A stretch of 62,575 bases of DNA, the filler included. It is 3 parts of 3 records of this genome, joined end to end, with 100 filler letters (N's around TTAATTAATTAA, not from the genome) between each part and the next. Parts side by side here need not be neighbours in the genome. Positions count along the whole stretch, not along the records: positions 47,071 to 62,575 come from SRR20825006_1769; 2 more parts are not named here. One strand, 5' to 3'. The notes below the pieces were generated by a model. The model did not search any database, was not told where the DNA came from, and saw only the letters and a list, made by a program, of their open reading frames with translations. Every line of letters starts with the position of its first letter. The stretch's first letter is position 1. Below, piece by piece: positions 36,451 to 55,197 of the stretch. A program made the translations under genes and the position numbers.

Positions 36451-36474
36451 TGATTTCTCCGAACACCTGGTTAT

Positions 36475-37287
36475 TTAAAGCTCTCGTTTGACACGCAAAC
36501 CCATCTGCTTCCCGTGGAAAAAAAACGGAGTGGCCTGTCGAGCGCTAGCTCTGACATTTCTGTTGCTCGCCTCACCGAAGCTGCCACCTCGGAATGCCCG
36601 CAGCTCACACTTATCAGACAAATGCGGCAAGCCATTAGGCGGCAGTGCCTCGAGTGAGTTGCTAAAGCAGTCAGCCACATACTCAGAAACGTTACCTAAG
36701 GTGTCATATATTCCGAACGGATTGGCTGCATAACTACCGACGACAGAAGGAACTCTGGTGGCAGTACTAAATCTACCCCCGCCGTCACAGTCCGTGCATT
36801 TGGCGTTATTTGTACCAATTTCGTCACCCCACCAATATATTGTGGTGGTGCCGCCGCGAGCTGCATACTCCCACTCCGCTTCAGAGGGCAGGCTGTACTG
36901 AAACCCGGTTTTCCGGCTCAGCCAGACAACATAGTCTTGCGCCTCTTGCCAGCTAACACCCGCGATCGGCATGGTGTCTGCCTCCCACCCTTGTTTGGGG
37001 GGCAGCGATGCACAGCCGCTGTCATCCACGCATGCTTTAAACTGCGCATAGGTGACTTCATATTTGCCGAGCGCGAAACTCTCCGGGATTGTGACGGGTC
37101 GTGCAGGCCCTTCAACGGCCATGCGGGCTTGCTTGTCATAGTCGCGTGCTCCCATCATGAACTGTCCGGCAGGGATCACAACCATTTCAGGGCATTCGCT
37201 GCAATCCTTGAAACTTGGGATATCCTCAAGGCTTTCATCTGCGCAGCCAACAAGCAGAAGCGTTGATATTACCAATATAAATCGCAT
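36475..37287 (-). CDS. FGE-sulfatase/SUMF1-domain lipoprotein
   Basis: Lipobox LVGC; CPEMVVIPAG, KYEVT, LPSEAEWEYAARGG, NPFGIYDTLGNV, RGGSF, GLRV. Confidence 0.92.
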   Translation of the reverse strand: MRFILVISTLLLVGCADESLEDIPSFKDCSECPEMVVIPAGQFMMGARDYDKQARMAVEGPARPVTIPESFALGKYEVTYAQFKACVDDSGCASLPPKQGWEADTMPIAGVSWQEAQDYVVWLSRKTGFQYSLPSEAEWEYAARGGTTTIYWWGDEIGTNNAKCTDCDGGGRFSTATRVPSVVGSYAANPFGIYDTLGNVSEYVADCFSNSLEALPPNGLPHLSDKCELRAFRGGSFGEASNRNVRASARQATPFFFHGKQMGLRVKREL

Positions 37288-37391
37288 CAATTCCCCCATC
37301 AACCGTTGGCGTTTCGCCTAGGCTTGTGGGGATACTAGGGGCGGGACATCCTCTTGTACATAACCTTCGTGCAATGGTTGTGAGGGTGGGG

Positions 37392-38453: not shown

Positions 38454-38481
38454 TGCGGTTTGCCTTTCTTGCTCTCTCAAA

Positions 38482-38820
38482 TCAGGTTTCGCGGTTCGCC
38501 TTCTCGGTCAGGCCCGATAGCCCTTCGCGGCGCGCAAGCTCGTCTGTCACATCGCTGAGCGACAGGCCCTTGGCACTGAGGAGCACCATCAGGTGGAACA
38601 TAAGGTCGGCGCTTTCGCTTACCAGCTCCTTATCGTCGCCGCTTGCGGTGGCCATCGCAACCTCGACGGCCTCTTCCCCTACCTTTTGCGCGATCTTTTT
38701 GGCACCTTTATGGTAAAGCCGCGCAACATAACTTTCATCCGCTGAGGCACCCTTGCGACCCTCAAGAAGGGCTTCAAGCCGGGTCAGGGTATCGCCTACG
38801 CTGTTTTGATTGTCTGTCAC
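38482..38820 (-). CDS. hisE: Phosphoribosyl-ATP pyrophosphatase
   Basis: [14 protein letters not shown] and ESADLMFH motifs. Confidence 0.95.
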
Positions 38821-38936
38821 TGTTTATGCCTCACTTTTCGCCGCACATGCGCCACACATGCGCCGCATACCTGCCTACAGATACGCCACACATACGCCTC
38901 ATACCAGCCACACATTTGGGGTGTTTCGCCACACAT
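38817..38936 (-). CDS. Possible 39-aa ORF bridging hisF and hisE
   Basis: ATG one nt after the hisF TAA; TGA overlaps the hisE GTG (GTGA); [39 protein letters not shown]. Confidence 0.3.
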
Positions 38937-38937
38937 T
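38827..38937. repeat. ~11-bp-period array, consensus CGCCACACATN
   Basis: Units at 38827, 38839, 38850, 38861, 38872, 38884, 38895, 38906 and 38927. Confidence 0.85.
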
Positions 38938-39696
38938 TTATAGCCTAACAGCTATTCCCGCGTTTGCCATATGGGCTTTTGCCTCCGCGATCGTGTGGTC
39001 CCCAAAGTGGAAAATCGAGGCCGCCAGCACCGCAGAGGCATGGCCGTCTCGCACCCCTTCAACCAGATGGTCAAGCGTGCCAACACCGCCGGACGCGATC
39101 ACCGGAATGCTCACTGCATCAGAGATTGCACGGGTTAGTTCGAGGTTGAAACCCTCCCGCGTGCCGTCCCGGTCCATGCTGGTGAGCAGGATCTCACCCG
39201 CGCCAAGGCGCGCGGCTTCCTTGGCATACTCAACCGCGTCAATGCCCGTGGCTGTGCGGCCACCGTGGGTGAAAACTTCCCACTTGTCTGGCCCAACTTC
39301 CTTGGCATCAACCGCCACCACGATGCACTGGGCACCAAATTTTTCAGACAGTTCACCGATCAGCGCCGGGCGGTTTACCGCTGCGGTCATCACTGAGACC
39401 TTGTCTGCGCCTGCCAGCAACAGCTTGCGCACGTCTTCCGCCGTTCGCACACCACCACCCACGGTGAGCGGCATGAAGCAGGCTTCCGCCGTGCGGCTTA
39501 CGACATCGAGGAGGATATCCCGCCGCTCGCTGGAGGCAGTGATATCAAGGAAGGTCAGCTCGTCCGCGCCTGCGGCGTCATACACACGCGCCTGTTCCAC
39601 CGGGTCACCAGCGTCGATGAGGTCGACAAAGTTAACGCCTTTCACGACCCGGCCGTCCTTCACATCGAGGCAGGGGATGATGCGTGCTTTCAGCAT
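38938..39696 (-). CDS. hisF: Imidazole glycerol phosphate synthase cyclase subunit
   Basis: [22 protein letters not shown] and [10 protein letters not shown] motifs. Confidence 0.97.
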
Positions 39697-40412
39697 TTTG
39701 CAAGCTCCAGCGCGGCCTTGAGGTCCAGCCGTCCGTCATAAATCGCGCGGCCGGTGACCACGCCTTCAAGGTTGCCAGCGGTTTTCACACGGGTGATGTC
39801 GTCCATGTCTTTCACCCCGCCGGATGCGATCACAGGGATCGAGACGGCGTTCGCGAGCGCAGATGAGGCTTCCGCATTGACGCCGGTGAGCGTGCCGTCG
39901 CGGTCGATATCGGTGTGGATGATGGCGGCAACACCTGCGTCCTCAAACTGCACGGCAAGCTCAGCCACTTCCACTTCACTGGCTTCCGCCCAGCCTTCCA
40001 CAGCAACCATGCCGCCCTTGGCGTCAATGCCCACGGCGACCTTGCCGGGGAAAAGCCTGCAGGCCTCTTTCACAAGCGCGGGGTTTTTGACCGCGAGCGT
40101 GCCGAGGATAAGGCGCGAAATGCCAGCGTCTAACCAGCGGTCCATGGTCGCAATATCGCGGATGCCGCCGCCAAGCTGAACCGGGATTTTCACCGTGCCC
40201 AGAATGGCCTCAACGGCGGCGGCATTCACCGGTGCGCCCGCGAACGCGCCGTTCAGGTCCACCAGATGCAGCCACGTGCAGCCTGCATCTTCAAACTCCT
40301 TGGCTTGCGCCGCCGGGTTGTCGCTGAAGATGGTCGCAGCGTCCATATCGCCTTTGAAAAGGCGAACGCAATTGCCGTCCTTGAGGTCAATGGCAGGATA
40401 AACGGTAATCAT
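39690..40412 (-). CDS. hisA: ProFAR isomerase
   Basis: [23 protein letters not shown] and TDIDRDG motifs. Confidence 0.97.
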
Positions 40413-41065
40413 GGTTTCCACTCCAAAAACGCACTCAGGAGCCTGAGGCCAACGGCCTGACTCTTTTCCGGGTGGAACTGCGTGCCCACCATGTTGTCTC
40501 GCCCAACTATGGCAGTGACCTGTCCACCATGCTCGGCATAGCCCAGCAGGGCATCACCGGTAGTCAGCGCCATATGGTAGCTGTGCACAAAATAGGCGTG
40601 GTCACCGGCCTGAATGCCGCTGCACACCGGGTGTTTGGCGCCCGCGTCTGTGAGCATCAGGTCGTTCCAGCCCATATGCGGGATCTTGAGCGCGGGGTCG
40701 TTTGGTTCCATGCGCTCCACGGTGCCGTCGATCCAGCCCATGCCTTCATGGATGCCGTGTTCATGCCCTTCATGCGCCATAAGGTGCATGCCCACACAGA
40801 TACCAAGGAAGGGTTTTCCTGCCTCCAGCACGGCCTCTTCAATTGTATCCGCCAGGCCTTCAATCGCCATCAAACCGCGGCGGCAATCGCCAAACGCGCC
40901 AACACCGGGCAATACGATACGGTCAGCTTTCGCGATCACATCGCACTTGTCTGTTACAATAATCGTGCTTGAAAGCTTGGCCTCATGAGCCGCCCGCGCC
41001 AGTGCCTTTTCGGCAGAACGCAAGTTGCCCGAGCCATAATCAACGATGGCAACGGTTTCGGTCAT
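40409..41065 (-). CDS. hisH: Imidazole glycerol phosphate synthase glutaminase subunit
   Basis: [27 protein letters not shown] and QFHPEKS motifs. Confidence 0.97.
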
Positions 41066-41082
41066 CTAAAGCTCCTTGCCGC

Positions 41083-41682
41083 TTAGAGGCTGCCGCCGAG
41101 GGTGCCCTTGGTGCTTGGCACAGCGTCCGCCTTGCGGGGGTCGACCTCAAGCGCTGTCCTGAGCGCCCGTGCGAGCGCCTTGAAGCTGCTTTCAATAATA
41201 TGGTGGTTGTTCACACCATAGAGGTTTTCCACGTGTAGCGTGACGCCTGCGGCAAAAGCGAAGGCACGGAAAAACTCTTCAAACAGCTCCGTATCCATCT
41301 CACCGATCTTGTCGCGGCTGAAATCAACCTTCCACACAATGAAAGGTCGGCCTGAGATATCGATCGCGGCGCGGGTCAGCGTTTCGTCCATCGGGATATA
41401 GGCGCTGGCATAGCGCGTGATGCCCAACATGTCGCCCAGCGCCTTTTTGATCGCTGTGCCGATGACGATGCCGCAGTCTTCCGTGGTGTGGTGCCCATCG
41501 ATGTGCAGGTCGCCTTTTGCACGCAAGGTAATGTCGATTAGCGAATGGCGCGACAGTTGTTCGATCATATGATCGAGAAAGCCAATGCCGGTATGGACGT
41601 CGTACGAACCCGTACCGTCCAGATTTACCGTTGCGGAGATCTCGGTCTCCTTGGTCTTTCTTTCATATGATGCTGTGCGCAT
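41083..41682 (-). CDS. hisB: Imidazoleglycerol-phosphate dehydratase
   Basis: [24 protein letters not shown] and PSTKG motifs. Confidence 0.97.
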
Positions 41683-41805
41683 TTCATGCTCCGCATTGCA
41701 GTTTGGTTTGACCAATTGGTGCTCATGCCCCAATTTGAAAACATTATGGCTTTAGGATTAAAGCGCTCAAGACGCAAGGAATTATGCGGCTTTTGCGCAC
41801 ATAAG

Positions 41806-41834
41806 CTTGTAAGAGATCACTTCGGTTCATATAT
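41806..41834 (+). promoter_or_regulatory. RpoH (sigma32)-type promoter for hslVU
   Basis: CTTGTA-N16-CATATAT, close to the alphaproteobacterial CTTGAA-N16-CCTATAT consensus. Confidence 0.65.
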
Positions 41835-41877
41835 GCTTTCGCAAAGATAAAAAGTAGAAAAGGAAAACTTAAGTCTT

Positions 41878-42459
41878 ATGACTCAGTTCCATTCAGAGCT
41901 GCCAACCTGGCATGCCACCACCATCTGCAGCGTACGCAAGGACGGCAAAGTTGTGATCGCTGGCGATGGTCAGGTCTCGGTTGGTGATACGGTGATGAAA
42001 GCCAACGCACGCAAGGTAAGACATCTGGCGGGCGGCAAGGTGATTGCCGGTTTTGCGGGTGCGACTGCAGACGCCTTCACGCTTTTTGAGCGGCTTGAGG
42101 CCAAGCTTGAGCGCCATCCGGGCCAGCTTGCGCGCGCCTGTGTTGAGCTCGCGAAAGACTGGCGCACAGATAAATACCTGCGTCAGCTTCAAGCCATGAT
42201 GATTGTTGTGGACGGTGACACCAGCCTTGTTGTGACCGGTAACGGCGATGTGCTTGAACCCGAGCACGGTGTTGTGGCTATCGGTTCGGGCGGCAACTAT
42301 GCGCTTGCGGCAGCGCGTGCGCTCTATGACCAGGACCTGAGCGCCGAAGACATCGCTCGTAAGGCCATGAAGATCGCCGCTGATATCTGTGTCTATACCA
42401 ACGACAATGTGATCGTTGAGCAAATGGATGCATCAAGTAATACTGAGAGTCAGGAGTAA
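41878..42459 (+). CDS. hslV: ATP-dependent protease subunit HslV
   Basis: [27 protein letters not shown] and IGSGG motifs. Confidence 0.97.
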
Positions 42460-42461
42460 GT

Positions 42462-43772
42462 ATGAGCAGTTTTTCCCCCCGCGAGATCGTGTCCGAGCTG
42501 GACCGTTTCATCATCGGCCAGAAGGACGCGAAGCGCGCAGTTGCCGTGGCGCTCAGGAACCGCTGGCGGCGCCAGCAGCTTGAAGGCCAGATGCGCGAAG
42601 AGGTCTTGCCAAAAAACATCCTGATGATCGGACCAACGGGCGTTGGTAAAACTGAAATCTCCCGCCGTCTTGCCAAACTAGCGGAAGCCCCTTTTATCAA
42701 GGTTGAGGCCACTAAGTTTACGGAAGTGGGTTATGTGGGCCGCGATGTTGAACAGATCATTCGTGACCTGATTGAGAACGCCATTCTGATGATGCGCGAG
42801 AAGCGCCGCAAACAGGTGGCTTCCAAGGCGGAAATTCATGCGGAAGACCGCGTGCTTGATGCGCTTGTGGGCGAAGGTGCTTCTGATGCTACGCGGCAGA
42901 AGTTTCGCAAAATGCTGCGTGAAGGCGAGTTGGCGGAAAAGGAAATCGAGCTTGATGTGGCGGATACCGCCAGCCCGTTCCCGCAGTTTGATATCCCCGG
43001 TATGCCGGGCGCCAGCATGGGCATGGTAAACCTGGGCGATATGTTTGGCAAAGCCATGGGCGGCCGCAAGGTGAAGAAACGCCTGAAGGTATCTGAAGCC
43101 TATGAAGTGCTGATGGGTGAAGAGGCTGACAAGCTGGTGGACGACGAGAGCATCACGCGCGAGGCCACAACGCTTGTGGAAGAGCATGGCATCGTTTTCC
43201 TTGATGAGATCGACAAGATTTGCGCACGCCAGGACGTGCGTGGCGGGGACGTAAGCCGGGAAGGTGTGCAGCGTGACCTGTTGCCGCTGATTGAAGGCAC
43301 CACCGTGTCCACCAAATACGGTGCGGTGAAAACCGACCATATTCTGTTTATCGCGTCTGGCGCATTTCATCTGGCGAAACCGAGCGACCTGTTGCCCGAG
43401 CTTCAGGGCCGGTTGCCGATCCGCGTAGAGCTACGCCCGCTGACGGAAGAGGACTTCAAGCGTATCCTCACTGAACCTGACTATAGCCTTATCCGCCAGT
43501 ATGTGGCGCTGATGGGTACGGAAGAGCTTACGCTTGAGTTCACCGAAGATGGTATCGATGAGATCGCGCGCATTTCTGCGCACTTTAACGAGACGGTTGA
43601 AAATATCGGCGCGCGGCGCCTTCACACCGTGCTTGAAAAAGTGCTGGAGGAGGTCAGCTTCACCGCCAGCGACCAAAGCGGTACCAATATCACGGTAGAT
43701 GCCGCCTTTGTGCGTAAAAACATGGGTGAGCTTGCCGAGAAGGATAATGATCTTTCCAAGTTCATTCTCTAG
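42462..43772 (+). CDS. hslU: ATP-dependent protease ATPase HslU
   Basis: [24 protein letters not shown] and GVQRDLLP motifs. Confidence 0.97.
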
Positions 43773-43871
43773 AACGCGGCGTAATGTTCTTTTGTCGGTT
43801 GGTGGCTGGACGCCGCCAATCGGCACGTTATAGTGTGCCCATTCCATTCACCAATAGTGGGAGTGCATGCC

Positions 43872-44249
43872 ATGGCCTATGACAAGAACAACATCTTCGC
43901 GAAAATTCTGCGCGGGGAAATTCCTTGCAACAAGGTCTATGAAGATGAGTGGGCGCTTGCGTTCCATGACATCAACCCGCAGGCCCCAACCCATGTATTG
44001 GTCATCCCGAAAGGGCCGTATGTTTCCATGGCTGATTTCACAGCGGAAGCACCGGCAGACCTGATTGCAGGTTTTATGCGCGCTGTGGGCAAAACGGCTG
44101 AAATGCTCGGGCTTGTGGATGATGGTTACCGTACGCTGGCAAACGCAGGCGACAATGCGCATCAGGAAGTGCCACACCTGCATATCCATATTTTTGGCGG
44201 CAAAGCCCTTGGTCCCATGCTGATAAAAGACTGGTCTGGCCAGCTCTAA
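43872..44249 (+). CDS. HIT-family nucleotide-binding protein
   Basis: NIFAKILRGEIP and QEVPHLHIH motifs. Confidence 0.93.
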   Translation: MAYDKNNIFAKILRGEIPCNKVYEDEWALAFHDINPQAPTHVLVIPKGPYVSMADFTAEAPADLIAGFMRAVGKTAEMLGLVDDGYRTLANAGDNAHQEVPHLHIHIFGGKALGPMLIKDWSGQL

Positions 44250-44265
44250 CCTCCGGTCTTCGAGC

Positions 44266-44445
44266 TTAAAGCTCGCGTGCTTCATCCGCCAGCAGGATCG
44301 GGATGCCGTCCCGTATCGGGAAAGCGAGCCCTGCTGATTTGCTGATCAGCTCCTGCTTTTCTGCGTCATAGTCCAGCCGCATCTTGGTCACCGGGCATAC
44401 CAGAATTTCAAGAAGCTTGGGGCTTGTGCTGCTGCGATCAGGCAT
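44266..44445 (-). CDS. Trm112/YcaR-family protein
   Basis: [11 protein letters not shown]...[12 protein letters not shown]; start placed at MPDRS. Confidence 0.9.
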
Positions 44446-44473
44446 GTGTTGTCTCCGCACTCTGAAATGAAAT

Positions 44474-45139
44474 CTAGTGGGCTGAACCGTCGCTGTCATT
44501 GGCCGCGAGGTTTGATGCGGCCATGGTGAGCAGTTTTTTGAGAAGCTCCGACCGGTCCCACACCTCCGGAGCCTCAAGAAGCGCTTGTTTCTCTGCCGGT
44601 GAAAACGGGACAATCATCGAAAGTGTGTTCACCAGCACGTCGTCCGGCGCTTCGGCGATGGCGCTGAAATCTGCGTCTAACCCCTTGATATCAAGGTATG
44701 CCTTCAGGGATGCCATCAGGGCATCACGTTCCACACGGGTTTTGCTGTTGCCGCCCCATGGGTCTTGCTCGAACGCTTTCCAGTCGGCGCGTACCTGCCG
44801 ATACGGCGTGGTAACGCTTAGCTCTTCGTCAATCCGGAAGCGGGATAAACCCTTGAGCCGAATGACGATGCGGCCATCCTCAGTCTCATGAAACTCACTA
44901 ATAGAGCCCACGCCACCAACGGTGAACAAGGGTGGCGCTTTTGCGCCCACTTCCTTCACGCGTGGCTGGATCATGCCAATAAGATTGTGACCGGTTGCTG
45001 CGTCACGCACCATCTTCAGGTAGCGCGGCTCAAATATATTGAGCGGCAGGCTCGCACCAGGCAGCAGAATGACGCTGGGCAAAGGGAATACAGGAATGAC
45101 GGAAGGCAAAGCATCCAGTGTTTTGCTTTTTTCCGTCAT
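44474..45139 (-). CDS. LON peptidase substrate-binding domain protein
   Basis: [16 protein letters not shown] and EKQALLEA motifs. Confidence 0.92.
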
Positions 45140-45148
45140 TCCGGGGCC

Positions 45149-46081
45149 CTAGCTAAACAGAACGGACGACAGGCGCCGCCTGTATTTCATGGTGAAGGGG
45201 TCGCTGGCGCCTGCTGCTTCAAAAAGCTTCAGAAGCTGCTTGCGTGCGGCGTCGTCATTCCATTCACGGTCCCGCATGATGATGCCGAGAAGAGCTTCTG
45301 CCGCTTTATCAAGCTCACCTGTGCCCTGATAGGAAAGCGCGAGGGAATAGCGCGCTTCATGGTCTTGCGGGTCTTCGCTCACTTTGGCTTCAAGGGCCGC
45401 ACGGTCGCCGGCGTTTTCACCTTCAGCGGCCAGTTCAAGCGCGGTGTGAATACGCGCGAGACGCTCTTTCTGTTTGGGGTCGTCTATCTCATCCTCAGAC
45501 ACTGCCTCAAGAATGCGGGTGGTCTGGTCGCTTTGCCCAAGCTTGAGTGAAGCCTCCGCCATACCGATCAGTGCCGCCGTGTTGTTTTGGTCGTGCATCA
45601 GGATTTGCTGGTAAACTTGCACCGCCTGCATGGCCTCACCGCTATCAAGCAGGCCGTTTGCGTGTTCAACCGCTTCTGCGACGGGGTCGCCAGCTTCTTC
45701 ACCGCCTGCAAGGGCCACTAGTTTATCAACGAAGGTTTTGAGGTGCGATGCTGGCACAGCGCCCTGGAAACCATCAACCGGTTGGCCCTGCCAGAAGGCC
45801 AGTACGGTCGGCAGGCTTTGTACCTGCATCTGCGCGCATAACTGCTGGTTCTGGTCGGCGTTGACTTTCACAAGTGCAACCGCGCCGTTTGCAGCTTTTA
45901 CCGCAGTTTCAAGCGCGGGCATCAGTTGTTTGCACGGGCCGCACCAGTCTGCCCAGAAATCTACAATCACCGGGCGCTGTTGGGACGCGGCAATCACGTC
46001 CTCGCCAAAGGACTGCATGTCAGTGTCTTTAATTAAATCTGTGCTTGCGCCGGGGACACCGGCGCCAATAAGTGCGTCCAT
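45149..46081 (-). CDS. cnoX: Thioredoxin-TPR chaperedoxin (YbbN/CnoX)
   Basis: DFWADWCGPCK, GFQGA, TPR helices, C-terminal RRRLSSVLFS. Confidence 0.9.
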   Translation of the reverse strand: MDALIGAGVPGASTDLIKDTDMQSFGEDVIAASQQRPVIVDFWADWCGPCKQLMPALETAVKAANGAVALVKVNADQNQQLCAQMQVQSLPTVLAFWQGQPVDGFQGAVPASHLKTFVDKLVALAGGEEAGDPVAEAVEHANGLLDSGEAMQAVQVYQQILMHDQNNTAALIGMAEASLKLGQSDQTTRILEAVSEDEIDDPKQKERLARIHTALELAAEGENAGDRAALEAKVSEDPQDHEARYSLALSYQGTGELDKAAEALLGIIMRDREWNDDAARKQLLKLFEAAGASDPFTMKYRRRLSSVLFS

Positions 46082-46153
46082 CTCAAAACTCTTGGATCAA
46101 ATTTCAATACCATACCAATGAGGCAAGAGAAGCCCTTGGCGATCTATCGCTGA

Positions 46154-46182
46154 CCATAGGAGGTCGGGCTTCGCTTTGCCAG
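46154..46182 (-). promoter_or_regulatory. Possible RpoH-type promoter for cnoX
   Basis: Minus strand CTGGCA-N16-CCTATGG. Confidence 0.4.
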
Positions 46183-46209
46183 AGGGGATTGCTTATTTTT
46201 TAGCGTTTT

Positions 46210-46746
46210 TCAACCAGCGTTGTCAGTGAGGTTTATGATCAGCGGTTCATAACCGCATGCGCGAATAAATTTAATCAGATCATCAGGCGCGATGGTTGTG
46301 GTCGCGGCGTTGTGAAGTGGGTGGCAATTGATAACGCCGCCGCTCACCAGCGTTTCATCCAGTGCGACGACAAGCCGGGGTGGCTCCCCATCACTTATGC
46401 GCGCATTAAAAAGCCCAAACGGGGTAACGGAGCCGGGCTCTACCCCCAACATGTCTTTCAGGCTATCGGCGCTGCCAAACGACAGGCGACCCAGGCCAAT
46501 GAGATCAGCGAGACCGCGGAGGTCGATTTTTACACTCTCCTCAGCCACCACAAGGGCGCGGCGTTTCTTCTTGTCTCGCACGAACAGGTTTTTGGTGTGC
46601 CAACCGGGCATGCCGCCGTCTGCACCAAGCCGTGCGGCTTGCGCCTGCTCGACTGTGAAAACAGGCGCGTGGCGCACCGTTTTTATTGTGATGCCAAGTG
46701 TTTCCAGAAAGGTAAAGAGCGCCATCTCTGCGGGATGCGATTCCAT
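46210..46746 (-). CDS. YbaK/ProX aminoacyl-tRNA deacylase
   Basis: HAPVFTV, TKNLF, LGVEPGSVTPFG and NCHPL motifs. Confidence 0.9.
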   Translation of the reverse strand: MESHPAEMALFTFLETLGITIKTVRHAPVFTVEQAQAARLGADGGMPGWHTKNLFVRDKKKRRALVVAEESVKIDLRGLADLIGLGRLSFGSADSLKDMLGVEPGSVTPFGLFNARISDGEPPRLVVALDETLVSGGVINCHPLHNAATTTIAPDDLIKFIRACGYEPLIINLTDNAG

Positions 46747-46848
46747 GTGCGTGTCCTGTGTTTCGCGTGTGCCCATAAGGCTTTATCGCATAAATACCCA
46801 TGCATTTCATGAGCTTAGACGCGTTTCATAAAAAAATAAAAAAAGGTG

Positions 46849-46886
46849 TTGCAAAGGCAATGTGGATAGCTATTATCCCGCCTCGC
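46849..46886 (+). promoter_or_regulatory. Stable-RNA sigma70 promoter
   Basis: A-rich UP element, TTGCAA-N16-TATTAT, GC-rich discriminator CCCGCCTCGC, upstream of the tRNA. Confidence 0.75.
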
Positions 46887-46940
46887 AGACGGCACCGCCG
46901 CCTGTTACCCCTCACAACGCTTGCGTTGTGTACGCGATGA

Positions 46941-46970
46941 GCGGGCGTAGCTCAGGGGTAGAGCACAACC
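46941..46970 (+). tRNA. tRNA 5' fragment truncated at contig end (Gly-type)
   Basis: GCGGGCGTAGCTCAGGGGTAGAGCACAACC; the anticodon is not in the sequence. Confidence 0.8.
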
Positions 46971-47070
46971 NNNNNNNNNNNNNNNNNNNNNNNNNNNNNN
47001 NNNNNNNNNNNNNNTTAATTAATTAANNNNNNNNNNNNNNNNNNNNNNNNNNNNNNNNNNNNNNNNNNNN
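46971..47070. other. Artificial contig linker
   Basis: N44-TTAATTAATTAA-N44. Confidence 0.98.
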
Positions 47071-47071
47071 G

Positions 47072-47857
47072 ACAGCTTCTTTAAATGGTTTTGATACTAA
47101 GATTACGGGTGTAACCAACGATTATTCAAAAACTGCAGGTAGTGATATTTGTGTTATTACTAGTGGAATTCCACGTAAACCAGGAATGACTCGTGAGGAA
47201 TTAATCGGTATCAACGCTGGAATCGTGAAAGACGTGTCTTCAAACCTTGTGAAAAATTCTCCTAAAACTATTATAATCGTAGTGAGTAATCCTATGGATA
47301 CAATGGCTTACTTGGTTCATAAAACTTCAGGTTTAGATAAAAATAGAATTATTGGAATGGGTGGTGCATTGGATAGCGCACGTTTCAAATACCGTTTGGC
47401 AGAAGCATTGGAAGCTCCAATTAGTGATGTTGACGGAATGGTAATTGGCGGTCATAGTGATACTGGAATGGTGCCATTAACACGTTTGGCAACTAGAAAT
47501 AGCGTTCCTGTAACTAAATTTATTTCTGAAGAAAGATTAAGTCAAGTTATGGAAGATACTAAAGTTGGTGGTGCTACATTAACCAAACTTTTAGGAACTT
47601 CAGCTTGGTATGCGCCAGGAGCGGCAGTTTCTTCTTTGGTTCAAGCAATTGCTTGCGATCAGAAAAAAATGTTTCCTTGTTCTGTTATGCTTGATGGAGA
47701 ATATGGTTTGAAAGATATTTGTATTGGTGCTCCAGTTATTTTGGGCCGAAATGGTATCGAAAAAATCGTAGAACTTGAATTAAACGATGCTGAAAAAACA
47801 CATATGAAAGCAAGTGCAGAAGGTGTGAGAAAAACGAATGACTTACTTGAATTGTAA
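47072..47857 (+). CDS. mdh: Malate dehydrogenase (LDH-like), 5' truncated by contig edge
   Basis: Frame open from the contig edge; ITSGIPRKPGMTR, VSNPMD, LDSARF, GGHSD, SAWYAP. Confidence 0.95.
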   Translation, partial: TASLNGFDTKITGVTNDYSKTAGSDICVITSGIPRKPGMTREELIGINAGIVKDVSSNLVKNSPKTIIIVVSNPMDTMAYLVHKTSGLDKNRIIGMGGALDSARFKYRLAEALEAPISDVDGMVIGGHSDTGMVPLTRLATRNSVPVTKFISEERLSQVMEDTKVGGATLTKLLGTSAWYAPGAAVSSLVQAIACDQKKMFPCSVMLDGEYGLKDICIGAPVILGRNGIEKIVELELNDAEKTHMKASAEGVRKTNDLLEL

Positions 47858-47883
47858 TATTTAAGTTGCTTATTAATAAAATT

Positions 47884-47922
47884 AAAAAGCCGATTCCTTA
47901 AACTTTAGGAGTCGGTTTTTTT
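47884..47922. terminator. Bidirectional intrinsic terminator
   Basis: AAAAAGCCGATTCCT...AGGAGTCGGTTTTTTT. Confidence 0.85.
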
Positions 47923-47925
47923 ATT

Positions 47926-48354
47926 CTACTCAATACACATTTTGCCGTCAATTCTTTGTGTTTCACCATTAATGTCTAATGTTGATTTATAATAGAAACA
48001 TTTTCCTTCAATTTTAATAAGCTCAGTTAATATGCCATTATTGTCGTTTATGAATTGTTGAAACTCAGAAAGCTCCATTTTGGTTTCATCATACTTCAAT
48101 CTGTAGGTGCAATCATCAATCCATATGATGTTTTCGTATGCTGTTTTGTTAAAACTCTCGTCTAATTGGTTTTCAGGATCATGGACAATTTCAATTTGGG
48201 TGTCTCCTTGGCGAATAATTTTATAGCCTAATGGAATGTATTGATCTGCCTCTACATAAAAAGCACCATTTTTAAAATCAGAGCAATCTAATTCTTGGGA
48301 AAAAGTATTTAAGCTAGTCAATAATAAAGCGAAAATTAAAAAATGTTTTTCCAT
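47926..48354 (-). CDS. Secreted hypothetical protein
   Basis: Signal peptide; CSDFKNG and WIDDCTYRL motifs, a pattern common in flavobacterial small proteins. Confidence 0.75.
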   Translation of the reverse strand: MEKHFLIFALLLTSLNTFSQELDCSDFKNGAFYVEADQYIPLGYKIIRQGDTQIEIVHDPENQLDESFNKTAYENIIWIDDCTYRLKYDETKMELSEFQQFINDNNGILTELIKIEGKCFYYKSTLDINGETQRIDGKMCIE

Positions 48355-48459
48355 GATTACAATATTAAGTAAAAGCCTTCAAAACTTTTACATAGTAATG
48401 AAGGCTTTTATTTTTTAGTCTTGTCTCCTGAATCTATCAGCGAAGCGGTCTTTATATTC

Positions 48460-51012
48460 TTATCCACACTTCGAAGACCCACAATCTTTGCAAGTCAAAC
48501 ATCCTTCTTGATAAATTAATGAAGTGCTATTACAGTTTTCGCACTTCTGTTTTCTCGCCTCAGTGCCATCAGCTACGTAGCGTTTTAACGCACGGGCAAC
48601 GCCATTTTTCCATGTATTAATGCTTTCTGTGTCTAGCTGTAAACTATTAATCAATTCTACTGCTTTTTCAATAGGCATTCCGTGGCGAAGGGTGCTGGAA
48701 ATCAATTTTGCATAGTTCCAAAATTCTGGATTGAATTTATGCGAAAGCCCTTCAATAGTGGTTTTGTAACCTCTTTTGTTTTTGTATTGAAAATCGTAAC
48801 GCGAGCTGCCATCTTCGTTTCTATTCTTAATAATTACCCCTTCATTCACCCAACGCGGAATTAAAATTCCATCTTCGTCATCTGCAAAACCGGTAAAGAT
48901 TTCATAAGGTTTTCCGTCAATTAAGCCAATAAAAGCAATCCATTTGTCTTTGCTATTTTGGAAACGAACCACATCTGCTTCCAATATTTCTGGGCGTTTG
49001 GTGGGGAACGCTGTCAAGGTTTCATGTTCTTCTTCTTTCTTTTCTTCATTTGAAATCAACACACCCGAACGCGAACCATCACGATAAACGGTCACACCTT
49101 TGCAACCGGCTTGCCAAGCTTCCAAATAAAGTTTTCCAACCAATTCTTCGGTAGCATCATTTGGCAAATTTATTGTAACAGAAATGGAATGATCTACCCA
49201 TTTTTGTACGGCACCTTGCATGCGCACTTTGCTCAACCAATCTACATCGTTTGAAGTAGCTTTATAATAAGGAGACTTTTTTACAATTTTATTTAACTCT
49301 TCTTGGCTGTAATTTTTGTCGGTTGAAATTCCATTAACTTCCATCCACTGCTTAAAACGGTGATGAAAAACTACATATTCTTCCCAGCTGTCGCCCACTT
49401 CATCAACAAAATCTACACGTACATTTTTATCATTCGGGTTCACTTTTCTTCTTCTTTTATAAACGGGAAGAAATACTGGTTCAATTCCTGATGATGTTTG
49501 CGTCATTAAACTGGTGGTTCCAGTTGGTGCGATTGTTAGTAATGCTATGTTTCTTCTACCATATTCTAGCATATCGTAATAAAGCTTTTCATCGGCTTCT
49601 TTTAGGCGAAGAATAAATGGATTTTCTTTTTCTCTTTCACTGTCAAAAATAGCAAATGCACCACGTTCTTTTGCAGCATAAACTGAAGCGCGATACGCTT
49701 CTATAGCAAGAGTTTTGTGGATTTCAATTGAAAAATCAGTTCCTTCGTTACTGCCGTATTTTATGCCCAATGCAGCAAGCATATCACCTTCTGCGGTAAT
49801 GCCAATTCCAGTTCTACGACCTTCATTAGCTTTTGTTTGAATGTTTTTCCAAAGATTTCTTTCTACAGCTTTTACTTCATCACTTTGAGGATCTGCATCA
49901 ATTTTTGCGATAATAGCATCTACTTTTTCAAGCTCCAAATCGATAATATCATCCATTATTCTTTGCGCAATACCAATGTGTTTTTTGAAAAGTTCAAAAT
50001 TGAACTCAGCTTTAGAAGTAAATGGATTTTCTACATACGAAAATAAATTGATTGCCAATAAACGGCAGGAGTCATACGGGCAAAGCGGAATTTCGCCACA
50101 CGGATTTGTTGAAACGGTTTTGTAGCCCAAATCTGCATAACAATCTGGTACGGATTCATTGATAATTGTATCCCAAAAAAGAATACCGGGCTCTGCAGAT
50201 TTCCATGCGTTGTGAACTATTTTCGTCCAAAGTTTTTTAGCTTCAATCTCTTTAGAGAATTTTGGATTTTCACTAAATATTGGGTATTTCTGGGTGTAGT
50301 TTTTTCCATCTTTTACAGCTTCCATAAAAGCGTCGTCCATACGTACAGAAACGTTGGCACCAGTTACTTTTCCCTGTTCCATTTTGGCATCGATAAAATC
50401 TTCAGAATCGGGATGGTTTATAGAAACTGAAAGCATCAATGCGCCACGACGACCATCTTGCGCTACTTCGCGAGTTGAATTTGAATAACGCTCCATAAAA
50501 GGAACAATTCCTGTTGAAGTCAATGCAGAATTTTTCACCGGTGAGCCTTTTGGGCGTATGTGTGAAAGATCGTGCCCAACACCACCACGACGTTTCATTA
50601 ATTGAACTTGCTCTTGGTCAATTTTCATGATGCCACCATACGAATCTGAATCGCCATCGTTGCCAATTACAAAACAATTTGATAATGAAGCTACTTGAAA
50701 AGGATTGCCAATTCCGGCCATCGGACTTCCTTGCGGCACTATGTATTTAAAGTTTTTGATTGCGTCAAAAACTTCTGCTTCGGTCATGGGGTTGGTGTAT
50801 TTTTGCTCAACCCGCGCAATCTCTTTTGCAATACGGCGGTGCATTTGGTCTGGCGTTTTTTCATAAATATTACCGTCAGAATCTTTAAGGGCATATTTAT
50901 TTACCCAAACACGAGCGGCAAGGTCATCGCCTTTAAAATATTCAAGAGAGGCTTCAAAGGCTTCATCTTGGGTGTAAATAGTGTTGTTTTTAGGCGGATT
51001 TTCTATCTGCAT
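48460..51012 (-). CDS. nrdJ: Class II (adenosylcobalamin-dependent) ribonucleotide reductase
   Basis: SLSNCF, TNPCGE, IAPTGT, KGVTVYRDGSR and C-terminal CxxC..CxxCG.SKCG motifs. Confidence 0.93.
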   Translation of the reverse strand: MQIENPPKNNTIYTQDEAFEASLEYFKGDDLAARVWVNKYALKDSDGNIYEKTPDQMHRRIAKEIARVEQKYTNPMTEAEVFDAIKNFKYIVPQGSPMAGIGNPFQVASLSNCFVIGNDGDSDSYGGIMKIDQEQVQLMKRRGGVGHDLSHIRPKGSPVKNSALTSTGIVPFMERYSNSTREVAQDGRRGALMLSVSINHPDSEDFIDAKMEQGKVTGANVSVRMDDAFMEAVKDGKNYTQKYPIFSENPKFSKEIEAKKLWTKIVHNAWKSAEPGILFWDTIINESVPDCYADLGYKTVSTNPCGEIPLCPYDSCRLLAINLFSYVENPFTSKAEFNFELFKKHIGIAQRIMDDIIDLELEKVDAIIAKIDADPQSDEVKAVERNLWKNIQTKANEGRRTGIGITAEGDMLAALGIKYGSNEGTDFSIEIHKTLAIEAYRASVYAAKERGAFAIFDSEREKENPFILRLKEADEKLYYDMLEYGRRNIALLTIAPTGTTSLMTQTSSGIEPVFLPVYKRRRKVNPNDKNVRVDFVDEVGDSWEEYVVFHHRFKQWMEVNGISTDKNYSQEELNKIVKKSPYYKATSNDVDWLSKVRMQGAVQKWVDHSISVTINLPNDATEELVGKLYLEAWQAGCKGVTVYRDGSRSGVLISNEEKKEEEHETLTAFPTKRPEILEADVVRFQNSKDKWIAFIGLIDGKPYEIFTGFADDEDGILIPRWVNEGVIIKNRNEDGSSRYDFQYKNKRGYKTTIEGLSHKFNPEFWNYAKLISSTLRHGMPIEKAVELINSLQLDTESINTWKNGVARALKRYVADGTEARKQKCENCNSTSLIYQEGCLTCKDCGSSKCG

Positions 51013-51328
51013 GTTTCAAATATTTTTGTGATTGTAGTTTTCTTCTAAAGAATGTAAATGTAGGTAAATTGAAATCTTTAAACTTTGTTTTGTTTTAGAA
51101 GTTATCAAAAGTGAATTGTTAATTTATTGTTTTTCAGATAAATAAAAATTTATGAACATAAAAAAGTTTACAAATTTTTAAAATTATTATAAACTGGTTG
51201 CTCTTAATGATTGAGAACAAAGCGGTTGTGGAGTTGAGATAAAATCGCTTGTTTTTTTATTGTTTTTGATGTTGGAATACGTATTTAGGTAAAACAAATA
51301 AAGATGTGCATTACAGGCTTTATTTTTT

Positions 51329-51336
51329 TATATTTG
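51329..51336 (+). promoter_or_regulatory. Bacteroidota -7 element immediately before the start codon (near-leaderless transcript)
   Basis: TATATTTG ends 4 nt before the GTG at 51341. Confidence 0.6.
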
Positions 51337-51340
51337 GCGC

Positions 51341-51955
51341 GTGAACTGGAGATGGTACATTGCCGCATTTACAATAGCCCTTACTTTTTTTGGAGTAAGC
51401 TTGGAGCATGCTACAGCGCCCAATCAGGAAATTGTGCTTCAGTTTAATGCGAATTCTATTAGTGCTGATGAGGCTCAGCAGACTATTTCGAATATTACAG
51501 ACCAATTAAAATCATTAGGTGTTGAAGCGATTCGGGTTTCTGAAATACAGGATGGTAAGTTAAAAGTTACCTATTACAGTACGCTTGATGTTGCTGTAAT
51601 TGAAGCTTTATTTCAAACACAAAACGAGCTTCAAATTGGTTATGATGCATTTAATAATAAGGATGGTTCTTCTAATAATCCTTTTAATAATGATGTTACA
51701 ACCTATAAATTAGAGGTAGTAAAAATTCAAAAAGATTACGGGTCTGACATTGGTTTTCATGGCTTACTTGTTGAGATAAAGTCTGTAAAAGATTTATATT
51801 CAAACCAGTTTATTTCATTTGCAACAGCAGAAACTAACTTTAGTTTAAAGCCTGTTATTGAAAGAAAAATAGGTGAAAATAATCACAATGTTTCACTTCC
51901 AAAAACAAAAACTTCATACGAAATTCCAGAGGTTAGGGCTGGCCCAGTTTCTTAA
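51341..51955 (+). CDS. Exported upstream ORF with C-terminal RAGP motif; candidate translation-arrest peptide for secDF
   Basis: N-terminal hydrophobic signal/TM segment; ends SYEIPEVRAGPVS*; lies directly upstream of secDF on the same strand. Confidence 0.7.
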   Translation: MNWRWYIAAFTIALTFFGVSLEHATAPNQEIVLQFNANSISADEAQQTISNITDQLKSLGVEAIRVSEIQDGKLKVTYYSTLDVAVIEALFQTQNELQIGYDAFNNKDGSSNNPFNNDVTTYKLEVVKIQKDYGSDIGFHGLLVEIKSVKDLYSNQFISFATAETNFSLKPVIERKIGENNHNVSLPKTKTSYEIPEVRAGPVS

Positions 51956-52080
51956 GGGAATTCTACCTAACAAATACCCAAAATTCTAATATGTAATAAG
52001 GTCTCTGTTTGTATACACTCGGAGGCATTTCAAATTAATTTTAAATAAACCAGATAATTGTCAGATTTATAAGCAAATCA

Positions 52081-52088
52081 TATATTTG
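52081..52088 (+). promoter_or_regulatory. Bacteroidota -7 element upstream of secDF
   Basis: TATATTTG about 60 nt before the secDF ATG. Confidence 0.55.
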
Positions 52089-52146
52089 CGCTCCTGTTTC
52101 GAGGCTTCGGAATGGGTTAAAATAATTTGACCAAAAACAATAAAAC

Positions 52147-55100
52147 ATGCAAAATAAAGGACTCGTTACCGTATTTGCCATCCTTTTTGGATTGGTAAGT
52201 ATTTATCAGCTCTCTTTTACATTTGTTGCAAACAAAGTAGAGGATAGTGCCAAAGAATTTGCCAACAGCAAATTTTCTGAAGATCAACCCCATGAGCGCG
52301 ACTATGCAGAGACGCGTTATTTAGATTCTGTAGCTACAAACCCTGTTTTTTTAGGAATTGACTACAAAACTGCCAAAGAGAAAGAATTAAATAAAGGTCT
52401 TGACCTTAAGGGTGGTATCAATGTAATTCTTGAGGTTTCTGTTAAAGATATCTTGAGTGGTCTTGCAAATAATACTAAAGACCCTGCGTTTAATCAAGCT
52501 TTGCAAAGTGCAGACGAGCTTCAAAAGGATAGCCAAGATACGTATCTTGAGTCTTTCTTTAAAGCGTTTGAAGCACTTCCAGGTGAAAATAATCTTGCAT
52601 CGCCAGATATTTTCTTCAATAAAAACTTGGAAGATGTAATTGATGTTGGAATGACCAACGATCAGGTAAAGCCAGTTATTGAGCGTAAAATTGATGAGTC
52701 TATTACTTCTGCTTTTGAAGTTTTAAGAAAACGTATCGATAAGTTTGGTGTAACACAGCCAAACATTCAGCGTTTAGGAAAGTCAGCAAGAATACTTGTA
52801 GAACTTCCTGGAGCAAAAGATGTAGACCGTGTAAAAAAATTACTTCAAAGTACTGCACAACTTGAATTCTGGGATGTGTATAAATTTGAAGATATGGCAG
52901 GCTTCCTTCAAGCTGCCGACGCTAAAGCAGGTGAAATTGCAATGGCAAAATCTGCTACAGAAACAACCGAAACTGTTGAAGCAACTGAGGCTACAGAAAC
53001 TGCTGTAGATTCTACTAAAGCTGAAGATGACGATGTAAGTAAGCTTTTAGGAGGTGAAGATGTTAAAGATTCACTTGTAGATGATGGTAAAGCAAATCCA
53101 ATTCTTTCAAAAATGGTTTCTTTAGGAAGCCAAGGAGGACCAGTAATTGCTACTTTTAGATTGAAAGATACCGCTGCAATTGATAGCTATTTAAGAAACC
53201 CACAAATAAAATCGTTGTTGCCAAATGAATTGCGTTACGCAAAATTCGTTTGGAGTCTTCCAGAATCTAATCCAGGATTAAATGGTGAAGAAACCACAGC
53301 TTTATATGCTTTAAAAGGAAACCGTGATAACCTTCCTCCACTTGGTGGAAGTGTGGTAGTAGATGCAAGACAAGAATTTGACCAAATGAGTCGTGTTGTT
53401 GTTTCTATGCAAATGAATGGTAGAGGCGCTAAAGTTTGGGAACAGATGACAGGTGATGCGTACCAAAACCAAAGCCAGATTGCTATCGTGCTTGATAACA
53501 TTGTGTATTCTGCTCCAGGTGTAACTTCTGGTCCAATTGCAGGTGGTCGTAGCCAGATTTCTGGAAACTTTACAGTACCACAAGGTCAGGATTTAGCAAA
53601 CGTATTGCGTGCAGGTAAGTTGCCAGCTTCAGCAGAAATTATACAAGGTGAAGTTGTTGGGCCAACGTTGGGTCAAGAAGCAATTAACAGTGGGGTAATG
53701 TCTTTCGCTGTAGCACTTATCATTGTTCTTTTATGGATGATTGGTTATTATGGTAAAGCTGGTGCTTTTGCCGATGTTGCCTTAATGGTAAACATTCTAT
53801 TTATTTTCGGAATATTAGCAGGTTTGGGAGCTGTGCTTACGCTGCCAGGTATTGCAGGTATTGTATTAACCGTAGGTATGTCTGTAGATGCGAACGTACT
53901 TATCTTTGAACGAATAAAAGAAGAGCTTGCAAAAGGTAAAGCACAAAAAGATGCCATTAAAGATGGTTTTAATAATGCATTATCTTCAATTCTTGATGCG
54001 AACATAACAACGGGTCTTACCGGTTTAATCCTTTTGGTTTTTGGAACTGGTCCAATTCAAGGTTTTGCAACTACCTTATTAATAGGTATCGCAACTTCCT
54101 TGTTTACAGCAATTTTCATTACAAGATTGTTTATTGATCGTTATACTAAAAATGGTAAGCCATTGCCTTGCTCGACGTCAATTACTAAAAACCTTTTCAG
54201 AAATGTAAGTGTCGAATTCTTGAAGAAAAGAAAAGTTGCTTATATTATTTCTGGAGTTTTACTTTTAGTAAGTGTTACTTCATTATTTACGAATGGACTT
54301 AACCAAGGGGTCGATTTTGTTGGTGGACGTACATATACTGTTCGTTTTGCAAAAGATGTTAATTCTCAAGAAATTCAGAATGATCTTGTAAAAGCCTTCG
54401 GAAGTGCTGAAGCAAAAACTTACGGTGGTGATAACCAGTTGAAAATTACAACCAAATATAAGGTTGATGAAACTGGAACAGAAGTAGATGAAGAAATTGA
54501 AAGAATGCTGTTTGAAACAGTAAAAACGAATATGCCAGCAGATATGACCTATGATATGTTTGTAGGCGATCAGGACGGAAAAACTATTGGTAGAATGGAA
54601 TACTATAAAGTAAGTCCAACCATTGCAGATGATATTAAAAAAGACTCATTCTGGGCTGTATTTGGTTCGTTAGTGGTAGTTTTCTTATACATCCTTTTAC
54701 GTTTCAGAAGATGGCAATTTAGTTTGGGTGCGGTTGCTGCCGTATTCCACGATGTTGTTATTGTGTTAGGTGTTTTCTCTTTAACGTATAGATTTATGCC
54801 TTTTAGCATGGAAATAGATCAAGCATTTATTGCGGCAATTCTAACGGTAATTGGTTACTCGCTGAATGATACCGTAATTGTATTTGACCGTATTCGTGAA
54901 TACTTTGGGGAACACCCAACATGGAAAATGAACCGAATTATAGACGTTGCATTAAGTAGCACATTAAGTAGAACCTTAAATACATCGTTCACTACACTTA
55001 TCGTGTTATTATGTATGTTCTTCTTTGGTGCAGAATCTATCCGAGGCTTGTTGTTTGCAATTATAGTTGGTATCCTTGTAGGTACATACTCATCATTGTT

Positions 55101-55197
55101 TATCGCAACACCAATTATGTACGATACTGTGAAGCGTAAAAAAGTTGAAGATTTAATTGATAAAAAAGAAGAAGAGGAAGCTGCTCTTGAAGCATAA
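52147..55197 (+). CDS. secDF: Protein translocase subunit SecDF
   Basis: GLDLKGG, LTLPGIAG, VDANVLIFERI, GVDFVGG, FHDV and GYSLNDTVIVFDRIRE motifs. Confidence 0.97.
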   Translation: MQNKGLVTVFAILFGLVSIYQLSFTFVANKVEDSAKEFANSKFSEDQPHERDYAETRYLDSVATNPVFLGIDYKTAKEKELNKGLDLKGGINVILEVSVKDILSGLANNTKDPAFNQALQSADELQKDSQDTYLESFFKAFEALPGENNLASPDIFFNKNLEDVIDVGMTNDQVKPVIERKIDESITSAFEVLRKRIDKFGVTQPNIQRLGKSARILVELPGAKDVDRVKKLLQSTAQLEFWDVYKFEDMAGFLQAADAKAGEIAMAKSATETTETVEATEATETAVDSTKAEDDDVSKLLGGEDVKDSLVDDGKANPILSKMVSLGSQGGPVIATFRLKDTAAIDSYLRNPQIKSLLPNELRYAKFVWSLPESNPGLNGEETTALYALKGNRDNLPPLGGSVVVDARQEFDQMSRVVVSMQMNGRGAKVWEQMTGDAYQNQSQIAIVLDNIVYSAPGVTSGPIAGGRSQISGNFTVPQGQDLANVLRAGKLPASAEIIQGEVVGPTLGQEAINSGVMSFAVALIIVLLWMIGYYGKAGAFADVALMVNILFIFGILAGLGAVLTLPGIAGIVLTVGMSVDANVLIFERIKEELAKGKAQKDAIKDGFNNALSSILDANITTGLTGLILLVFGTGPIQGFATTLLIGIATSLFTAIFITRLFIDRYTKNGKPLPCSTSITKNLFRNVSVEFLKKRKVAYIISGVLLLVSVTSLFTNGLNQGVDFVGGRTYTVRFAKDVNSQEIQNDLVKAFGSAEAKTYGGDNQLKITTKYKVDETGTEVDEEIERMLFETVKTNMPADMTYDMFVGDQDGKTIGRMEYYKVSPTIADDIKKDSFWAVFGSLVVVFLYILLRFRRWQFSLGAVAAVFHDVVIVLGVFSLTYRFMPFSMEIDQAFIAAILTVIGYSLNDTVIVFDRIREYFGEHPTWKMNRIIDVALSSTLSRTLNTSFTTLIVLLCMFFFGAESIRGLLFAIIVGILVGTYSSLFIATPIMYDTVKRKKVEDLIDKKEEEEAALEA

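Follow-up and report, generated by a model that had tools for sequence, protein, structure and literature searches.

A member of a tested arrest peptide family upstream of secDF in Flavobacteriaceae and its probable relation to the P1 domain of SecDF

Does the small exported protein encoded directly upstream of secDF in a Flavobacteriaceae genome monitor protein export by arresting its own translation, and where did its arrest motif come from? The locus lies in a window of 62,575 nucleotides (nt), the whole stretch of DNA that was analysed, in which an upstream open reading frame (uORF) on the plus strand (51341-51955) starts with GTG and encodes 204 amino acids (aa) with the C-terminus EVRAGPVS followed by the stop codon. 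The ATG of secDF is at 52147, leaving a gap of 191 nt, and the fused secDF gene (52147..55197, +) has a product of 1016 aa with the Pfam domains SecD_1st, SecDF_P1_head, Sec_GG and SecD_SecF_C. An earlier note, made from the letters of the window, had described the uORF as an exported frame ending in the arrest motif RAGP upstream of secDF, and all its coordinates hold. The best overall explanation, to which we give a probability of about 0.6, is that the uORF product is a Sec monitoring substrate with an indirect coupling to secDF and an origin in the P1 domain of SecDF. The closest named relative is Aequorivita sp. Q41, with a protein identity of 94%.

The suspicion in the earlier note that the family could already be catalogued was justified, as it is uDF_RQH_Flavobacteriales, defined by Fujiwara et al. 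2024 (PMC10987492); statements on this and the other cited sources concern the portions of each that were consulted. The uORF is a new member of this experimentally tested family and the headline of arrest is already published. According to the plasmid and strain tables of that paper the tested construct consisted of residues 19-204 of the uORF of Aequorivita sublithincola, accompanied by an R199A mutant, and this member arrested efficiently in vitro on B. subtilis ribosomes and more weakly on E. coli ribosomes. Aeqsu_0581 (A. sublithincola, 204 aa) and the window protein share 56% identity over 204/204 gap-free columns with R199 in register, and judging from species, length and residue number Aeqsu_0581 is probably the exact sequence that was tested. 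The two share the place before secDF, the 204 aa and the aligned R199, and no substantive difference between the proteins was found. Because an orthologue of 56% identity and with R199 aligned arrests, ribosome arrest by the window uORF is by analogy well supported. Stalling of RQH members places the third residue of the motif in the P site, as seen in toeprints (PMC10987492), and for the uORF the stall is predicted with the P site occupied by Gly201 and the A site by Pro202. In vivo arrest indices were high for most members, and in the consulted portion of that paper uDF_RQH_Flavobacteriales is not among the named exceptions.

The motif R199-A200-G201-P202 (51935..51946, +) is strictly kept in the family. 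A protein search found RAGP near the C-terminus in 120/120 homologues among the matches listed, and it was present in 145 of the best 150 of 429 profile matches, at 25-62% identity, the other 5 being truncated fragments, so that conservation of RAGP against divergence elsewhere was found as the earlier note had anticipated. In the family alignment RAGP was invariant in 128/128 homologues, as were N28, Q29, L56 and Y78, and column conservation was only 20-44% over aa 131-190. The expected synteny was equally clear: secDF was the next gene in 78/80 GTDB loci, the 2 others stopping at contig edges, with gap lengths of 127-292 nt. The stop codon followed two codons after RAGP in 68/79 of these loci, with an overall motif-to-stop range of 2-9 codons; the scan was seeded partly by the motif (one of two seeds), and its motif count of 79/79 is not independent. 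Full-length family matches were patchily distributed, in 85/201 Flavobacteriaceae genomes, and across the phylum the family was found in 2/251 genomes, both Flavobacteriaceae. A far-diverged member (L129:4326-4991, minus strand, 35 bits) also lies upstream of secDF and ends VPDSRAGPLNV, with a gap of 93 nt and no exact copy of the P2 box described below. The nearest frames before secDF at 29 loci of other Bacteroidia families, a weak test with short flanks, gave no match to the uORF family profile. Two of these frames (L240 and L252) end NAP-stop and LARAP-stop and probably correspond to the uDF_NAP-stop and RQH types already published.

The N-terminus of the uORF protein carries a predicted signal or transmembrane (TM) segment (aa 1-21; 51341..51403, +), with a hydrophobic stretch at residues 7-21 (best 15-residue Kyte-Doolittle mean 2.13) and a model helix at 3-21. 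The spacer between this segment and the motif is about 178 aa (aa 22-198), compared with more than 30 aa in the definition of the family. Many family N-termini have a Gln after the hydrophobic stretch, where the window protein has a His, and the Gln pattern may fit the Q-rule of Bacteroidetes signal peptidase I. No Pfam or NCBIfam family matched the uORF protein above cut-off, and its Pfam matches to SurA_N_3 (E 0.02) and AXH (E 0.1) were rejected as weak.

On the second half of the question, comparison of profiles indicates, with high confidence, that the uORF protein is a truncated relative of the periplasmic P1 domain of SecDF, a homology which the earlier note missed. NCBIfam SecD models matched up to 23/128 family members with a best E of 6e-7, and collinearly. 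Among the weak profile matches listed from 201 genomes, 62/65 were frames of about 1000 aa and 3 were frames of 304-329 aa; the long frames that were fetched were SecDF and the short ones were proteins consisting of P1 only, with PF22599. SecDF matched the uORF profile at two collinear places in a search of 963 frames, uORF positions 44-107 with about 190-255 and 124-205 with about 380-465, and reversed frames reached at most 4.3 bits. HHalign against 94 N-terminal halves of SecDF gave 90.6% (E 1.3e-6), with uORF aa 123-204 aligned to SecDF 384-465 with a single one-residue gap and RAGP on TSGP. Against 21 P1-only proteins it gave 98.6% (E 7.5e-16) at full length and 95.9% (E 6e-9) for aa 24-100. 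For the C-terminal part, aa 123-204, HHalign gave 94% (E 1.5e-7), and still 83.6% (E 8e-6) when aa 195-204 were taken out. Controls with reversed sequences and four unrelated templates stayed at or below 1.2%. The exported ferredoxin-like (beta-alpha-beta-beta-alpha-beta) domain predicted for aa 29-128 (51425..51724, +) would thus match the P1 base of SecD and of the P1-only proteins, located at about aa 188-245 of the window SecDF, and aa 123-204 (51707..51952, +) would be a degenerate, low-confidence remnant of the P1 head (SecDF about aa 384-465) that serves as the spacer leading into the arrest motif. The AlphaFold2 (AF2) model has predicted local distance difference test (pLDDT) scores of 83-92 over aa 31-90 and about 46-63 over aa 131-204, which would agree with a P1 base that is intact and a head that has decayed. 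Structure matches were of the generic ferredoxin-like kind with Z of 7-9.5 and ribosomal S6 on top (Foldseek, VIA). The nearest named Atlas clusters were SecD-TM1 and SecD_1st, with scores below 0.9 that are a lead only, and a PDB sequence search with the family profile returned three weak matches (E 0.05-1.2), none of them informative.

The arrest motif itself appears homologous to a (T/S)(S/T)GP segment of SecDF. At the motif positions 109 SecDF segments read G-V-(T/S)-(S/T)-G-P-I, with G in 108/109 and P in 83/109 at the GP positions, and several P1-only proteins read SAGP or SSGP. From TSGP to RAGP takes two substitutions and from SAGP to RAGP takes one. In SecDF of other Bacteroidia families GP was missing in 17/17 segments among the matches listed; 15 scoring segments of that group stayed below 7 bits, and two from Flavobacteriaceae reached 9 and 18. 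Because SecDF of other Bacteroidia lacks GP and scores low, the comparison points to Flavobacteriaceae SecDF as the source of the uORF, with the neighbouring secDF presumed to be both source and regulated gene. The inherited GP, along with a P and a V upstream of it, would also suit a SecD-derived exported accessory factor that merely kept RAGP from SecDF and does not stall native ribosomes; most RAPP-like motifs of ordinary proteins do not stall, and in vitro the E. coli ribosomes were arrested less strongly (PMC10987492). We regard this as very improbable: compared with SecDF, in which R occupies the first position in 0/109 segments, both R and A are novel, and they are invariant in the family while the head remnant drifts, the stop comes within two codons of the motif in the loci counted above, and the orthologue arrests. 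The literature searches, whose coverage did not extend to subscription papers, found no SecD origin of the uORF. The word 'duplication' occurs 0 times in the main text of PMC10987492, whose supplementary PDF, source data and data file could mention an origin, and the consulted portion of that paper describes no SecD homology, promoters, RNA structure or test of secDF regulation for uDF_RQH_Flavobacteriales.

The P1-only proteins provide a candidate intermediate. SecD/SecDF P1 (PF21760, PF22599) and the P1-only lipoproteins ('SecDF P1 head subdomain-containing protein') have base and head collinear with the uORF as far as the GP that follows the SAP motif; relative to them the uORF is cut inside the head, its head is degenerate, the lipobox Cys is mostly lost, the transporter TM domain is absent and the arrest motif is gained. 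A lipobox-like Cys was present in 20/21 P1-only proteins, compared with a Cys at residues 12-26 in 15/128 members of the uORF family. P1-only genes occurred in 8/201 genomes (E <1e-62), 7 of them directly upstream of the uORF and in tandem with it, and 1 without uORF. In genome G019 the P1-only gene lies between mdh and secDF in the absence of a uORF, with P2 present and no helix arm evident. The gene orders mdh-P1only-uORF-secDF and mdh-P1only-secDF thus both exist, and with mdh-secDF extant genomes hold all three stages of a possible series. The P1-only SecD lipoproteins at L111, L112, L113, L060, L078, L086, L230, L231 and L232 have 300-340 aa and lie between mdh and either the uORF or secDF; such lipoproteins are possibly stand-alone periplasmic partners of SecDF, and no paper on them turned up in the literature search.

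A tree of 63 rows and 113 columns, holding 20/128 uORFs, 13 P1-only proteins and 18 + 12 SecDF and made with a quick, suboptimal search, grouped the uORFs with the P1-only proteins with a Shimodaira-Hasegawa-like approximate likelihood ratio (SH-aLRT) value of 90. The tree cannot fix the order of events, which we infer from gene order and profile scores. In the proposed order the uORF gene would have arisen when the SecDF P1 region was copied in tandem and the copy was truncated two codons past a GP already present in the P1 head, and we lean towards a descent by way of a P1-only lipoprotein gene. On balance the arrest peptide would have been born from its own target: a tandem copy of secDF P1 became a P1-only lipoprotein, and a further copy lost its lipobox and the end of its head and acquired RAGP, with a repressing helix gained over the ancestral secDF promoter and a leaderless, two-promoter feedback free of Shine-Dalgarno (SD) sequences as the outcome.

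How the arrest could act on secDF depends on the transcripts, for which two promoters are predicted. Promoter P1 is a Bacteroidota -7 box TAnnTTTG, TATATTTG, at 51329..51336 (+), 4 nt before the GTG as the earlier note had observed. The same spacing to the start codon was found in 78/80 GTDB loci and in 41/49 loci of the family sample, against a baseline in the low-GC (guanine plus cytosine) frames of the window of 1/29, expected as the uORF itself. No conserved -33 element accompanies promoter P1, TTG being found in 1/41 loci. The TAnnTTTG box sits at -12..-5, and 5.5% of mRNAs are leaderless (PMC9723704). Since the box of promoter P1 lies at that distance, 4 nt from the start codon, the uORF mRNA is predicted to be leaderless with transcription starting at the first base of the start codon.

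A second copy of TATATTTG at 52081-52088, for which the earlier note had raised the possibility of an independent secDF promoter, belongs to such a promoter by its conservation and fixed spacer. This predicted promoter, P2, has the form TTG(-33)-N20-TATATTTG(-7) at 52058..52088 (+) with a predicted start at about 52093, and its spacer is exactly 20 in 71/79 loci. The P2 -7 box was present in 39/40 sampled genomes without uORF and in 34/48 with uORF, 14/48 of the latter lacking an exact box. Its presence in genomes without uORF marks P2 as the ancestral promoter of secDF. Where the uORF is missing, the gene that precedes secDF (as a rule mdh) has in most cases a terminator with a U-tract at its end (16 among the matches listed), and the uORF gaps have hairpins without U-tracts. 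The hairpin at 52001..52026 (+) in the window is of this kind, not a classic intrinsic terminator, and similar ones are common but variable in homologous gaps. The absence of a strong terminator was also borne out by a search of 51000-52300, which found 0 terminator-like sites against 0.6 in shuffles. An Rfam scan of the same region gave one chance match (E 1.4). Among sequencing runs that match the locus none is recorded as RNA; a contig from a run guessed to be RNA covers 51867-52377 and has a poly(A) loose end, and a run of unrecorded type contains the whole stretch in one piece and may be the source of this DNA, but neither is counted as evidence here.

Within the gap a long-range helix of 7 base pairs (bp) is predicted between GTCAGAT (52060..52066, +), which overlaps the -33 element of P2, and ATTTGAC (52125..52131, +), at -22..-16 from the secDF AUG and directly preceding the A-rich initiation region (A at -3, -12 and -13). 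In a hand-picked covariation set of 61/79 loci, from which near-duplicates and 5 unanchored loci were dropped, 96% of the cells were paired and 3/7 pairs were changed on both sides, compared with 13-43% for slid controls, and RNAalifold recovered the same helix. The earlier note had pointed instead to a GGTTAAA/TTTGACC hairpin before the secDF start. That hairpin does fold in the short transcript of this strain; its 5′ arm (52115-52121) is however overlapped by an optional inserted hairpin (52093..52116, +) that varies among lineages, and the conserved partner of TTTGAC is GTCAGAT. An inner hairpin G(C/T)AAA...TTTG was also scored as paired and is treated as promoter sequence, because the same letters occur in promoters without uORF. 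The window at 51915-51975, like many homologues, folds locally into a hairpin that spans the RAGP codons and the stop, often followed by a GGGAAT...TTCCC hairpin.

At least 5 contiguous helix pairs were found in 22/34 genomes with uORF and 5/39 without, and the median duplex energy was -6.7 with and -1.6 kcal/mol without uORF; kin genomes in this comparison are not independent and its significance is overstated. The pattern suggests that the helix was gained together with the uORF. Because transcripts from P2 begin downstream of its 5′ arm, the helix would form only in the long transcript, and the predicted unpaired probability at -24..-13 was 0.42 for the long and 0.76 for the P2 transcript (107 loci). 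In F. johnsoniae adenines at -14..-11 favour initiation, which is tuned by mRNA structure as well (PMC6847099), and the helix adjoins these positions.

These elements can be joined into the following mechanism. A leaderless transcript from promoter P1 would encode the uORF and continue into secDF. The N-terminal signal would engage SecYEG while the ribosome, almost certainly in our judgement, stalls at RAGP with Gly201 in the P site, and the pull of the export machine, SecDF included, would quite probably free the stall, a step drawn from SecM and VemP. Under weak export the lasting stall may, somewhat more probably than not in our estimate, raise SecDF from the long transcript above the basal level set by P2. 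The 7-bp helix beside the SD-less start region would hold the long transcript down, and the short P2 transcript could not form it. A putative coupling between stall and secDF might run through co-transcriptional folding, read-through or mRNA stability. It would have to be indirect, because the stall site is 70-230 nt away from the helix and the modelled footprint of a stalled ribosome leaves the helix closed. Release by export, like the terms 'force-sensing' and 'tunes SecDF' of the earlier note, would apply to uDF_RQH_Flavobacteriales by analogy.

Several results weigh against parts of this explanation. For the relation to SecDF, the window protein alone matches no SecD model in Pfam or NCBIfam, ParB C-terminal domains weakly mimic aa 50-92, and SecDF 5yhf, at rank 2 (E 0.022) in one structure search, was outside the top 50 in two others. 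Approximately unbiased (AU) tests on the tree rejected no alternative placement (p about 0.75). For the helix, the RNAalifold consensus is weak (-2.2 kcal/mol), the count of pairs with change is not above shuffles (93/500), the compensatory cells come from few lineages, the invariant pairs overlap the -33 box, and the AUG and the adenines at -14..-11 are left uncovered. The arrest data for uDF_RQH_Flavobacteriales come from foreign (B. subtilis and E. coli) ribosomes, and in the consulted portion of PMC10987492 induction of a downstream secDF is shown only for uDF_RQH_Enterobacterales of Alteromonas. With a promoter of its own, secDF may be independent of the uORF. Finally, when the footprint of a stalled ribosome was blocked in equilibrium folding, the helix region became more accessible by over 0.1 in 0/127 loci. 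An unfolding of a stem-loop by the stalled ribosome in the manner of SecM is thereby unsupported and was rejected; since kinetics are ignored in the equilibrium model, this result lowers a SecM-type output and not a role as monitor. The view in the earlier note that the output should differ from that of SecM fits this folding test, and the output mechanism would on the model be unlike SecM's.

The ancestral P2, kept in 34/48 uORF genomes, and the helix that stays closed beside a stalled ribosome also agree with a less likely explanation that still deserves serious weight, in which the arrest is real and sensitive to export and secDF is expressed mainly from P2. The stall would then keep the shared mRNA at the translocon for insertion of SecDF on site, or the P1-like domain would aid SecDF or a periplasmic chaperone, with the helix only silencing read-through. 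A cis-localising role exists for SecM, and the exported domain of the uORF protein is conserved at its four invariant residues and is predicted to fold. Uneasy with this account are the uORF genomes without an exact P2 box, which would lean more on read-through, the apparent gain of the helix with the uORF, and the induction of secDF by the related RQH member from Alteromonas. A transcriptional coupling is unlikely in our view. Here read-through from promoter P1 would occlude P2 and yield a poorly translated long mRNA, and the stall would alter read-through, for example through Rho-dependent termination within the gap or decay there, and shift expression to the well-translated P2 mRNA. A 5′ helix arm upstream of the P2 start, so that only the long isoform is repressed, a gap without intrinsic terminator and gap lengths of 127-292 nt, which suit a position-independent mechanism, all speak for it. 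Stall site and stop codon are however only 2-9 codons apart, so uncoupling would differ little between the stalled and released states. Monitoring of Sec by the uORF, with an indirect coupling to secDF, remains the preferred explanation.

Comparison with known systems places the uORF among Sec-related arrest peptides. E. coli SecM (RAGP) and ApdA/ApdP (RAPP) share with it the RAG/P core, the third residue in the P site and an N-terminal export signal, and the stalling geometry at RAG/P is common to SecM and ApdA/P (PMC12992588). Beyond the motif no sequence relation to them was found, the SecM family giving no match in Pfam and NCBIfam scans of 128 uORF members, whose gene is upstream of secDF and not secA; unlike theirs, the uORF motif appears traceable to SecDF. 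The uORF also differs from SecM and ApdA/ApdP in lacking an SD stem-loop in reach of the stalled ribosome, in its predicted leaderless mRNA and in the internal promoter of its target. VemP of Vibrio and uDF_RQH_Enterobacterales of Alteromonas are, like the uORF, encoded upstream of secDF genes. Release of VemP needs SecD/F and PpiD (PMC11470409), and in Alteromonas secDF2 is induced by the family member through exposure of an SD sequence (PMC10987492); both act by SD unmasking, unlike what is proposed for the uORF. According to the LudP preprint VemP lacks a proline motif close to the peptidyl transferase centre; arrest peptides of Sec and YidC are seen there as convergent and, in the consulted portion, uDF_RQH_Flavobacteriales is unmentioned.

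The window consists of joined contigs, with N-spacers near 29400 and at 46972-47071 and TTAATTAATTAA within the 47 kb spacer, and the contig of the locus starts after the spacer at about 46972-47071. In this lineage mdh does not adjoin the uORF (47186-51012): a gene of 142 aa and an nrd gene for ribonucleotide reductase, the latter divergent from the uORF, intervene, and in most relatives mdh is directly upstream. The part at about 29-47 kb (28246-46971) has a GC content of 55-60% and genes unlike those of the Flavobacteriaceae parts with 33-36% GC, and since both GC and genes differ the bin that was assembled is probably mixed or contaminated.

The new parts of the locus are the proposed derivation of the arrest motif from its own target, secDF, and the SD-free two-promoter layout. 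Whether RAPP-like arrest peptides have a single ancestor or arose repeatedly is left open in the Discussion of PMC10987492. One arrest peptide family now appears traceable to a specific non-arresting parent, the SecDF P1 head, at a distance of 1-2 substitutions from RAGP, and a traceable parent sequence would be direct evidence for an independent origin of a RAPP-like arrest motif. The stepwise conversion of this parent segment makes the question of arrest origin testable, and the locus offers a concrete model for how a monitor may control translation in a phylum without SD sequences.

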